A stretch of 46,064 bases of DNA from Candidatus Shapirobacteria bacterium (GCA_903825325.1 CAIKAI010000044.1:1-46064); one strand, 5' to 3'; numbered from the stretch's first letter, positions 1-32,181 are shown. Numbers and translations are program-made. The notes: generated by a model not told the origin, from the letters alone.

Positions 1-3000
1 AACCACACCCACTAATTCCCCCAAAAAGCTACTTACTCCCTTAGTATTTTGAACACCGTTACTAGTTTTCACTATGGCCGATTTTGGTTGTGCGGCATTA
101 GTAAAATCAAGAGAAATATCAGCAGCTTTTGGCAACACCACCTTTGTCTTTTCAATTTTCTTTAGCTCCAAATCCAAACTTCTAAGATTATATGGCCGAT
201 ATTTATCACTTTCACTATATTTAACTCCCAATGCATCTGCCCGGGCGATTATTTGATCTCTAGCTGCCACAAAATCATTCCAAGTTGGATCATAACTCAA
301 ATTAAAATCTTCTTTAAAATCTTTCAGCCGACTCTTTTCTAAATAATTTATATTATCTTTCAAATCCGCCAAGGCTTGTTCATTTATAGTCGTCCCGGCA
401 TTTCCCCCTATCGATTCCAACTGCTGTTTTAACGAGTGATATACCGCCTCTACAGTTGCTAAATAATAGTTTTTACCTTGATTTTGATTCCTAATTAACT
501 CAAAATTAATTCCTAAATTGGGATAGGTATTTTCGACTCTTTTTGTAGCATAATCCAAGGCCTCATCGTAGTTTTTTTGAGACATGCTCGTATCAAAAGC
601 CTTTCTTTCAGCCTCTAAATTTTGATAAGCTGTTTTTGTATCCTCAGTTACTTCTGCTGTTCGACCTGTGGCATTGTCAATCATCACCACCGCCGCCTTT
701 CGGTACTCGCTCGTCGAAATATTCGAGGCATCAACGATACCCACTAAGTACGATGAGTCAATCATAGTAGCAATCATTACCTCGCCTTTGGAGCCCTTTC
801 CATAATTCTCAATTTGCGAAATTGGGATATCCATTACCAAGAGTTGTCCTTGATTGGGAATAACTGAACTATCCAGATTTGTTCCACCCGATAAATACGG
901 TACTACATCCGGCCCGGCCGTATAATAAACAAAAACATTCGTTCTATTGACTAAACTTTTTCTAATCGAAAATCCCCTCAGAGCATCCTTTTCCGCCTCC
1001 TTCATAAATTCCTGATAATAGCCGCGAGCTCTTTCGTCTTGTATATATTTTTGACTAGCATCATACAACGCCACCATATTACTAAATGTTGGCTCTTTCG
1101 CCATCGCCTCCACAAATGGTTTCATTTCCTTGACGACCACCATTTTGCCATCACGGATATCTCTCATCGCATAGGCAGTTTGGTTGAGAAGCACGTCCAC
1201 CGTCGTTTTATCAATTACCCCAATTGCTCGATATACTCGGATAGTCGGCTCATTAGCAATTTTTGGCTGTTTGATTGCCAACAATTGCCCCACTTTTGCA
1301 TTTGGCATGGGCACCGAAATTTTTTCAACATTAAATCCTCTGTCTTTTAATCCAACTTCCAACTCATCGAAAGTAGTCATCGGTGTCGCCGGTGCAGGCA
1401 GTGCTGCTGTCGGTTGTACATTTGGAACTACTTCTTCATTCGATTCATTACTTACATTTTGATTTTGGGTGGAATTTGTATACAAAAAATCATAACCCGT
1501 CATTTTTGTTTTCAAATATTTATCATGCCACTGTTTTGCCAAATCTTGCCCCACGTAAAACAAATGCCAGTCCTCTTGTGGTAAACCATCCACCGGCGCC
1601 GAATATGTTTTGATAAAACCATATTTATATGCATTTTGTTCCACCCACATTCCCGCTTTAGTTTTACCAAATCCCGAACCAATTCCAATTGCCTGTTTGT
1701 TTTCCGGAGTACTTACATCCACTGCATACCCCGTGTTATGTTCCGATTCTTTTGGTTTGGTAGTTGCCTCTGGCGCTTGTGAGTGAGCAATTTGTTGCTC
1801 TTCCTTGGTTCTATAACCTGACATTAAATACATTGTTGCGCCATCGGCTCTTGCCGCATTAAACATTGCCGCCAGATCGTTAACCACTTCCCGAGCAATC
1901 ATTTCTTTTGGCGCCAACACATAATTATTCAAATAAGTAGCCGCTTCCACCAAATCTGGTTCAATATTATTCTTCATTTCCGCCGTCGTAACTGGTGATT
2001 TATGCAAATCACGAAAGGCAAACGGATTTACTGACATCGGTTTCAATTGATACTTATTTGGTTGTTGCCCTGGTTCCAACAAGCTTACCAGCTGTTCCAT
2101 CGCCAATTTTGCCGACCCAACGATCCATTGGCTTTTTCCTGAAATAACATCATCATAAAATTTATCCAACATAAACCAATTTTGTCGAAAACAATATTTT
2201 TCAAATAATGCCTCTTTGTTCCATATATTCTTCAGAACCGGACCTATAATGTCAGAAGTTGGATCGCCATATGGATTTTCTGTCGTTAAAGCATAAAATG
2301 CCGTGGTTAAAATAGCTCGAATATCTTCACTTTGGGTCGACACCCCGGTAACTAAATATTGAGGTGACATATTGAAAGCTGGCGTGCCAAAAAAATTGTT
2401 TGTATCAATTGTCGCCACTCTACCACCAAAGTCAATTAATTGAGCACCGTATTCTCTGGAAATAATTATATTTTTAGGCTTAATATCAGCATGGTTTTGA
2501 TATTTTTCATCAATCTCAATATTATGGATCTTATCCACTGTCTCGGCGATTTGTGCCATCCACAAGATTACTTTTGACTCATCAACGGTTTCGCCAAGAT
2601 CTTTGGAATCATTAATATATTTAGCCAAAGTTGGCCCATAAACATATTCCATCACTCCGTAGCCTGCATAGATTTGTCCATTAGAATTTACTAAAGGCAC
2701 AATATCCAACGCTACCGGAACATCCAATTTTCGATACACTGCCAATTTCTTAATCTCTGTTTGAATTCCAATCCATGGATTATCACTATAGACATTTCTT
2801 TTGATTATTACCATTTTCATCAAATGTGTATCCCACCCCGCATAGACCTCACCCTCACCTCCTGACGCCATCAACCGGCTGCTCTTTATATACCTATTCC
2901 CAACTAATTCTGATCCCGAAATCGGTTGGTTTAAAACCTGTGGATTCTGCCAAACAAGTGTTCGATATTCTTTTTCCAACTTTTCTATCTCTGCTTCCAC

Positions 3001-32181: not shown

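Follow-up and report, generated by a model that had tools for sequence, protein, structure and literature searches.

Which product, if any, is encoded by 32 kb of bacterial DNA in which no long open reading frame (ORF) is listed? This question is raised by the metagenomic contig CAIKAI010000044.1 (GCA_903825325.1), whose entire deposited sequence of 46,064 bp was analysed and is called the window here. Over positions 1–32181 the longest ORF given by the ORF track comprises 169 aa. A first-pass annotation had claimed that the track hides a single ORF of at least 32.2 kb, with 10,727 codons counted from a GTG at position 32181. Six-frame translation confirmed this, since one minus-strand frame runs from base 32211 to base 1 (10,737 codons) with zero stops. 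It is absent from the track because ORFs that extend past a sequence end are not listed. We refer to the predicted product as the giant. We infer its topology, target and activity from its sequence, and we lean towards the view that it is a hypervariable multi-enzyme protein, anchored in the membrane and located at the cell surface, of an episymbiont of candidate phyla radiation (CPR)/Patescibacteria type.

1–32181, minus strand: giant ORF, GTG start at 32181, at least 10,727 codons, frame open from 32211, 3′ end lost at the contig end

The two remaining minus-strand frames contain 860 and 1,090 stops, which excludes that a frame of 32 kb stays open by chance. Codon usage of the giant was compared with that of six adjacent genes: r was 0.64–0.89 across all 1,000-codon tiles, and in every tile frame 0 fitted the codon usage of the neighbours better than frames 1 and 2. 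Since the window is the whole contig, the stop codon and the 3′ end of the gene are not recoverable from it, in line with the earlier claim that the stop codon lies outside the window. The first 60 nt of the window had no match in large genome and metagenome contig collections. As judged from these data, the 32-kb frame is a genuine, contig-truncated gene for a protein of more than 10,700 residues.

Overlapping 1,000-aa tiles were used for profile scans of Pfam, NCBIfam and PHROGs, and PDB sequences were searched with the entire protein. Matches to known families cover about 6% of the giant and comprise two Hanks-type Ser/Thr kinase domains and one VanY/LAS peptidase. The kinase domains form the ends of two copies of a module of about 870 aa, which share about 48% identity and represent the main paralogy within the giant; the head of this module occurs a third time:

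4873–7476, minus strand: kinase module copy 1 (aa 8236–9103), with Pkinase at aa 8841–9073 (window 4963–5661, E 5.9e-13)
2077–4779, minus strand: kinase module copy 2 (aa 9135–10035), with Pkinase at aa 9769–9975 (window 2257–2877, E 2.4e-14)
10216–10854, minus strand: partial third module head without a kinase (aa 7110–7322), 48–50% identical to the other two heads
1549–1902, minus strand: VanY/LAS-type D-Ala-D-Ala (LD/DD) carboxypeptidase domain (aa 10094–10211, VanY E 1.8e-22)
1–1512, minus strand: C-terminal segment (aa 10224–10727), ending at the contig end

The Pkinase (PF00069) scores of 53.8 and 49.3 bits are well above the gathering cutoff of 31.7, and matches in PDB were to PknE, PknB and StkP, so that the best matches are bacterial kinases of the PknB/PknE/StkP type. 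Catalytic motifs are GGMGQV, VIIK, HGDVKPSN and DFG in copy 1, and GGEGEV, VIIK, HADIKPKN and DFG in copy 2. A conserved two-Cys loop ('CSPGFxSC') opens each module head. The first-pass annotation had proposed several kinase-like domains; kinases are present, but there are exactly two of them, the third module copy being kinase-less. The peptidoglycan peptidase that it had also proposed was found as the VanY domain (PF02557; 80 bits versus a cutoff of 25), with PDB matches of the YodJ/LdcB type (best 3.4e-20) and with the Zn/catalytic motifs SEHNTGYAVD and EDWH. By these motifs, the catalytic sites of both kinases and of VanY are intact. No family, PDB or intra-family match was obtained for aa 10224–10727 and no PDB sequence match for aa 1–5,000; the only PHROGs matches of the giant were to the kinase. 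Signatures of RTX/MARTX, Rhs/YD, NRPS/PKS or Bap/Ig-repeat proteins were not found in these scans, which is in agreement with the initial view that the giant is unlike those families.

The HExxH modules noted in the first pass also proved to be real paralogues. The giant contains two HExxH sites in total (about 0.02 are expected by chance at 0.6% His and 6% Glu):

16162–17364, minus strand: HExxH module A (aa 4940–5340), HEHRH at aa 5163
8083–9273, minus strand: HExxH module B (aa 7637–8033), HEEQH at aa 7860

Modules A and B are 28% identical, HEHRH and HEEQH fall into one alignment column, and HExxHxLN as well as a Glu 56 residues downstream are conserved. From its conservation this Glu is a candidate for the third ligand. 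Pfam and PDB gave no family match for the HExxH modules, even at E≤10.

To find relatives, an exhaustive HMMER search with a profile of the kinase module was run against 1.84 billion representatives. Among the 33,492 kinases matched, only two are true relatives, P0001 (4,404 aa, E 1e-95) and P0002 (6,217 aa, E 1e-37). Word-indexed searches with aa 4751–5750, 8001–8830 and 2245–3132 gave no matches; a relative of aa 2245–3132 was found by HMMER alone, which implies that word-indexed search misses relatives of 30–37% identity. P0001 (also P0151) is MFA7301742.1, 'MAG: protein kinase [Candidatus Shapirobacteria bacterium]', with 4,419 aa when counted from an upstream start. Its locus (L001) is on a 949,187-bp contig of a Candidatus Shapirobacteria metagenome-assembled genome (MAG), the only relative in GTDB. 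An episymbiotic bacterium with a small genome had been guessed as the source of the DNA, and a CPR relative on a contig of 949 kb fits this guess. As for novelty, the giant does fall outside the named giant families, but it is not without relatives, as the 4,419-aa orthologue and a 5,945-aa version from a sister strain (see below) demonstrate. Four blocks of the giant and P0001 (N-terminus, ATPase, module head, kinase) are collinear:

giant aa 733–1403 with P0001 223–852: N-terminal region, 23% identity
giant aa 2245–3132 with P0001 897–1811: ATPase region, 37% identity, E 2.6e-165
giant aa 7110–7288 with P0001 3601–3781: module head (43% identity for the third head)
giant aa 8744–9113 and 9659–10052 with P0001 3797–4181: kinase

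Both loci have a SIMPL gene immediately upstream, and the two proteins agree in the order of anchor, Cys-pair and hydrophobic region, ATPase, 'CSPGFxSC' head and kinase. P0001 differs from the giant in having less than half its length, one kinase instead of two, no VanY domain, and a neighbourhood with dnaA and dnaN. No counterpart of giant residues ~3150–7069 or of the HExxH modules was detected in P0001, and the latter have no relatives within the small giant family. In the Shapirobacteria locus, a small gene for a C39-like peptidase is located on the opposite strand about 1.5 kb downstream of the giant gene (L001 22087–22689).

P0002 shares with the giant the kinase and a portion of the ATPase region and additionally contains Peptidase_M48 (E 2.7e-10). 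This protein of 6,217 aa is encoded on a 27,819-bp JGI contig and also shows a Cys-pair N-terminus and a Gly/Ala hydrophobic patch; its ATPase motifs read GGGKTS, DEG, TGQT, LDATP and QGSKRNR. The sequence 'HSDFHIGN' close to its C-terminus has the look of an ABC1/APH-type kinase and has no Pfam support. Lengths within the family are thus 4,419, 5,945, 6,217 and at least 10,727 aa.

The best-conserved block is the ATPase region:

22786–25449, minus strand: P-loop ATPase region (aa 2245–3132), motifs Q, AQTGYGKS, DEG, TGQT, LDATP and QGTGRDR

An ATPase had been claimed in the first pass, and at the level of motifs this holds: a Walker A motif ([AG]xxxxGK[ST]) is followed by DEG downstream. In a three-way alignment of the giant, P0001 and P0002 the motifs and an upstream Gln are invariant, with P0002 only 21% identical. 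Walker A, Walker B (DExx), motif III and the Arg-finger motif VI occur in the order known from superfamily 2 (SF2) and SecA, with about 130 aa between motifs I and II and about 170–195 aa between motif II (Walker B) and motif III (TGQT). The Walker A pattern occurs once more, at aa 968, but there it is not part of the conserved region and looks like a chance match.

Homology to SecA was considered and rejected, since Pfam, hhalign and shuffle-controlled Smith-Waterman comparisons were all non-significant. Pfam gave no SecA_DEAD, DEAD or Helicase_C match in this region at E≤10, and there was no PDB sequence match. An hhalign comparison of two-row and three-row profiles with SecA of E. coli yielded a probability of 0.9%, and Smith-Waterman scores against SecA had z values of 0.9–1.6 relative to shuffles. 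With these homology tests negative, the likeness to SecA rests solely on the order and spacing of the motifs. On the basis of its motifs, aa 2245–3132 is best described as a conserved P-loop ATPase whose motif pattern is SF2/SecA-like, and not as a SecA homologue.

In the N-terminal part of the giant four regions can be distinguished:

32101–32181, minus strand: N-terminal signal anchor (aa 1–27: VKKKAGLQFAGLILMVAAVFLTTNLVQ), Lys-rich and then a 19-residue hydrophobic helix
29182–31689, minus strand: Cys-pair region (aa ~165–1000), three to four repeats of ~90 aa ('GC..GWY.G..GGC.QV.TGI') and then about eight Cys-x(6-17)-Cys loops
28252–29076, minus strand: Gly/Ala-rich hydrophobic region (aa ~1036–1310) with three conserved Cys pairs
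25462–28254, minus strand: Ala/Lys/Glu/Gln-rich segment (aa ~1310–2240), Cys-free and poor in aromatic residues

The membrane anchor that had been noticed at the N-terminus is well supported by a Kyte-Doolittle peak of 1.95 at aa 5–23 and by its conservation: a Lys-rich and hydrophobic N-terminus with 'NQ(D/E)NR' is common to the giant, the orthologue at L001 and the sister-strain protein at L004, where a GTG is found at the equivalent place. Directly after the hydrophobic helix, the sequence 'LV(Q/S)Q(N/K)..(D/E)NR(N/S)' occurs in all three orthologues (window 32100–32181; L004 14724–14830; L001 7268–7370). Its conservation suggests that the motif is not simply part of an anchor but a signal for recognition or processing.

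An Ala-rich stretch separates the anchor from the Cys-loop repeats. The Cys-pair region is kept in L004 (30% identity) and in P0001 (23%), and 28 of the 35 Cys residues of the giant are found in aa 1–1500. Apart from those in the module heads, all Cys pairs lie within the first 1,300 aa. The positive-inside rule predicts an extracellular position for the region that follows the anchor, and the paired Cys residues agree with this; the Cys-pair region is therefore probably extracytoplasmic. Further hydrophobic peaks are present at aa 1045–1063 and 1264–1286, and hydrophobic blocks and Cys pairs of this region are conserved in a three-way alignment with P0001 and L004. Such a composition would fit either a membrane-embedded or a membrane-inserting segment at aa ~1036–1310. 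Within the following segment, helix formers account for more than 54% of aa 1400–2100, Pro and Gly are scarce there, and hydrophobicity recurs with a period of 3.5 residues (z up to 3.6); aa ~1310–2240 are probably a long alpha-helix or coiled-coil. Further downstream, at window positions 21460–21572 (about aa 3537–3574), a 45-nt tandem repeat of 2.5 copies with 98% match is found in frame. No other near-perfect DNA repeat is present in the giant gene, whose length might vary at this position.

Immediately upstream of the giant gene a second conserved gene was identified:

32189–32845, minus strand: SIMPL/DUF541 gene (SIMPL E 1.1e-19), its stop 7 nt before the GTG of the giant

The SIMPL protein has an N-terminal hydrophobic helix and is 46% identical to the SIMPL protein encoded directly upstream of the giant, on the same strand, in the Shapirobacteria MAG. 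SIMPL/BP26 proteins are envelope proteins (PMC7697752). As the remaining neighbourhood differs in the Shapirobacteria locus (dnaA, dnaN), SIMPL and the giant constitute a conserved unit. At L001 (3861–7281) the SIMPL-giant pair directly follows dnaA and dnaN, near the presumed replication origin.

A comparison with sister strains was possible, since the sequence for the ABC ATPase of the window occurs in identical form on further ENA metagenome scaffolds (the longest 62,873 bp). The sister contigs include ERZ19029834 scaffold_448 (62,873 bp), ERZ19032267 scaffold_251 (54,238 bp) and ERZ19032456 scaffold_245 (44,200 bp). The gene order on the sister scaffolds is: large fn3 protein, ABC ATPase, FtsX-like permease, MurB, (alpha/beta hydrolase), metallophosphoesterase, (BrnT/CopG), RuvC, SIMPL, giant. 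Identity between window and sister is 100% for the ABC ATPase, 99.5% for FtsX, 92% for MurB, 91% for RuvC, 75% for the fn3 protein, 71.5% for the metallophosphoesterase and 67% for SIMPL. For the giant it is 30% over the first ~1,080 aligned residues (L004), with zero match at the nucleotide level. Compared to the 99.5–100% of FtsX and the ABC ATPase, this demonstrates that the giant locus is far more variable than its surroundings. The giant of the sister strain was called with 5,945 aa in three independent assemblies, at the same position after SIMPL. On a 25,698-bp sister contig (L007 12177–15350) the start of the giant was called as a gene for 1,093 aa, the first 1,058 residues of which are identical to the 5,945-aa version; this short call points to a premature stop in a variant within the population or, alternatively, to an error in assembly.

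Taken together, the giant most likely belongs to a tiny, undescribed and very fast-diverging family of proteins carrying an ATPase, protein kinases and peptidases, as far as the sequences tell. As its definition we propose an upstream SIMPL/DUF541 gene, a signal anchor, a Cys-loop ectodomain with hydrophobic region, a P-loop ATPase and a C-terminal Hanks kinase. Window and Shapirobacteria orthologue both have all these features in this order; in the sister strain SIMPL, the anchor and the N-terminal region were confirmed. Lineage-specific cargo appears to be gained or lost around this core: two HExxH modules, the duplicated kinase and VanY in the window, and M48 in P0002.

How could such a protein function? 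In the first pass a multi-effector or cell-cell interaction machine had been suggested, which would be one possible function beside a self-directed intracellular one. As a cell-surface protein, the giant would be anchored in the membrane of the producer and extend outward on its long helical segments. It would make contact with another cell and use its Cys-loop and hydrophobic regions to attach or to insert into a membrane. The enzymes would then act at or inside the envelope of the partner or host by peptidoglycan trimming, proteolysis and phosphorylation, and the ATPase may drive export or remodelling. The extreme divergence between near-identical strains would result from selection for host specificity or from an arms race. 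A bolder version, which we consider speculative and rather improbable, holds that CPR bacteria possess a class of SIMPL-linked, strain-hypervariable giants that export themselves by a divergent SecA-like motor and deliver exchangeable enzymes to the host, thereby setting the host range.

Several points weigh against the preferred explanation as a whole. Kinase and ATPase need ATP, which argues for a location in the cytoplasm or for transfer into another cell. Depending on how often aa 1036–1310 cross the membrane, about 9,400 residues may lie on either side of it. About 70% of the giant has no detectable similarity to anything. AlphaFold models based on two-row alignments reached a pLDDT (predicted local distance difference test) of only 42 for the ATPase region and 44 for an HExxH module, and a Foldseek search of PDB with the poor model of the ATPase region returned nothing and is uninformative. 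Moreover, the sister gene ends at 5,945 aa, and parts of the window ORF may be separate or absent there. The CPR assignment of the window rests on one orthologous locus, and no rRNA, tRNA or marker gene was found within the window (Rfam and tRNA scans were empty).

The main rival explanation starts from the question of topology. With an odd number of membrane passes the C-terminal ~9,400 residues would be in the cytoplasm of the producer, and the giant would be a self-directed scaffold or regulator of envelope growth or division, with PknB/StkP-like control of peptidoglycan synthesis and VanY trimming precursor pentapeptides. ATP-dependent domains (two intact kinases and the P-loop ATPase) are most simply cytoplasmic, the best kinase matches are of the PknB/PknE/StkP type, Cys is nearly absent past aa 1500, and MurB and the FtsX-like permease, which are related to peptidoglycan or division, are encoded nearby. 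A housekeeping scaffold is, however, unlikely to show 30% identity where FtsX and the ABC ATPase show 99.5–100%, and a spread in length of 4,419, 5,945 and at least 10,727 aa would be unexpected for it. Furthermore, the two-Cys 'CSPGFxSC' loop at the head of each kinase module hints at an oxidising compartment, and apart from SIMPL the neighbours differ from those in the Shapirobacteria locus (beside dnaA and dnaN). ATP dependence thus speaks for a cytoplasmic scaffold, hypervariability and length variation speak against it, and we regard this explanation as unlikely, with perhaps one chance in a few.

The hypervariability of the locus would also be in agreement with a mobile element, in which case the giant would be a polyvalent protein of an integrated conjugative element or phage, injected together with DNA and countering the defences of the recipient by its enzymes. 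The combination of an SF2-like ATPase, a zincin-like HExxH and a peptidoglycan peptidase resembles the polyvalent theme, and a BrnT/CopG toxin-antitoxin pair is located close by in sister strains. Relatives were nevertheless completely lacking in IMG/VR, PLSDB plasmids and INPHARED phages, and PHROGs matches were limited to the kinase. No gene for an integrase, relaxase, capsid or type IV secretion system is present within the window, and the neighbours are housekeeping genes. The N-terminal membrane anchor is conserved, and the SIMPL-giant pair is kept in two distant genomes in different chromosomal contexts, one of them beside dnaA and dnaN. We therefore consider a mobile-element origin very unlikely. 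Even less credit can be given to the explanation that the frame is an artefact, either a mis-assembled chimera of loci or strains or adjacent genes fused by errors. The metagenomic contig does terminate within the giant, G+C climbs from ~0.37 to ~0.47 across the ORF towards its 5′ third, the sister versions were called with 1,093 aa on one contig and 5,945 aa on others, and a near-perfect 45-nt tandem repeat lies within the ORF. Unrelated joined pieces would not stay free of stops over 10,737 codons, though, with ~8–10% stops in other frames; codon usage is homogeneous, the shift in G+C is due to the Ala-rich N-terminal third, and the repeat unit is a multiple of three. The first-pass annotation had been concerned about collapse of internal repeats. 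The giant is mostly non-repetitive in self-comparison, and its internal paralogues are only 25–50% identical (about 48% for the kinase module), too diverged to collapse in assembly, so that this concern could be dismissed. In addition, the four blocks are in the same order as in the independently assembled Shapirobacteria orthologue, which argues against large-scale chimerism. A cell-surface protein that acts on other cells remains the explanation that we prefer.

The surroundings of the SIMPL-giant unit show some further features:

33030–33058, minus strand: promoter-like site TTTACA-17-TAGAAT (10/12 consensus matches), within the 310-nt gap upstream of SIMPL
38318–46063, minus strand: second very large ORF with fn3 and purple-acid-phosphatase-N-like domains, up to 2,581 aa to the window edge, 2,385 aa in sister strains

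The number of promoter-like sites is not above that in shuffles, so the sequence at 33030–33058 is weak support for a possible promoter of the operon. The 3′ end of the fn3 ORF overlaps the beginning of a MacB/FtsX-type ABC transporter pair (38321–37635 and 37638–35692, minus strand) by 4 nt. Nucleotide identity of this ORF to the sister is patchy in the 5′ half (82–93%) and 95% in the 3′ half, and the fn3 surface protein appears to be variable as well. When window 33620–35669 was compared to L004 9993–13763, the window lacked the alpha/beta-hydrolase gene between MurB and metallophosphoesterase and the BrnT/CopG pair before RuvC.

Little is known about how ultra-small CPR bacteria attach to and exploit their hosts. 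An identity of 30% amid neighbours with 91–100%, together with the anchor, kinases, peptidase motifs and cell-wall peptidase, makes the giant a strong candidate for determining host interaction or host range. If the genome is similar to that of the 949-kb Shapirobacteria relative, the gene would take up about 3% of ~1 Mb. The family is invisible to standard annotation, as the GenBank orthologue is simply named "protein kinase". We see the chief interest in the hypervariability and in the recurring theme of ATPase, zincin and kinase, and not in size alone. Should a SIMPL-linked, self-exporting class indeed exist, the giant would represent a host-manipulation system within a single polypeptide that determines host range.

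Beyond kinase and VanY the giant has no sequence similarity to any described family. Polyvalent proteins of phages and conjugative elements combine an SF2-like ATPase, zincin-like, peptidoglycan-active and other effector domains in one huge polypeptide. The giant resembles them in its variable domain content and in an evolution that is apparently driven by conflict. It differs from them by its membrane anchor, Cys-loop ectodomain and chromosomal SIMPL partner and by the lack of a mobile context. The PknB/StkP membrane kinases of monoderms provide the best kinase match, and the giant has catalytic residues and the association with a peptidoglycan-active domain in common with them. Unlike these kinases it has no PASTA domains, its kinase is located ~8,800 residues from the anchor and not adjacent to it, and the kinase is duplicated inside an 870-aa module of otherwise unknown fold.

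Proteins of more than 10,000 aa had been called very rare in prokaryotes by the first-pass annotation; they are already documented in ultra-small episymbiotic bacteria, mainly Omnitrophota and the Planctomycetes-Verrucomicrobia-Chlamydiae (PVC) group (bioRxiv 10.1101/2023.11.21.568195; 10.64898/2026.06.07.730766). No similarity to giant proteins of the Omnitrophota type surfaced in the word-indexed and HMMER searches that were run. Like the giants of Omnitrophota ('Archaeovorin', dockerin-type), the giant of the window has a gene of more than 30 kb in an apparently small genome, is membrane-anchored and mostly unannotatable, and contains scattered divergent enzymatic domains including cell-wall-active ones; a role towards host or prey was proposed for them. 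A SecA DEAD motor was reported in giant proteins of Omnitrophota (bioRxiv 10.1101/2023.11.21.568195), and the order and spacing of the ATPase motifs in the giant recall this motor, without a Pfam SecA_DEAD match. Differences are the phylum, with a CPR Shapirobacteria MAG as nearest relative of the giant, one anchor and one hydrophobic cluster instead of tens to more than 100 transmembrane helices, and the presence of Hanks kinases, VanY, HExxH and a SIMPL partner. Assignment to the Archaeovorin type (at least 30,000 aa, many transmembrane helices, Omnitrophota host) was therefore rejected for a protein of at least 10,727 aa (3′ end missing) with few hydrophobic segments and a CPR relative. The giant extends the phenomenon of giant genes, so far known mainly from Omnitrophota and PVC, to a CPR lineage, with an unrelated architecture.

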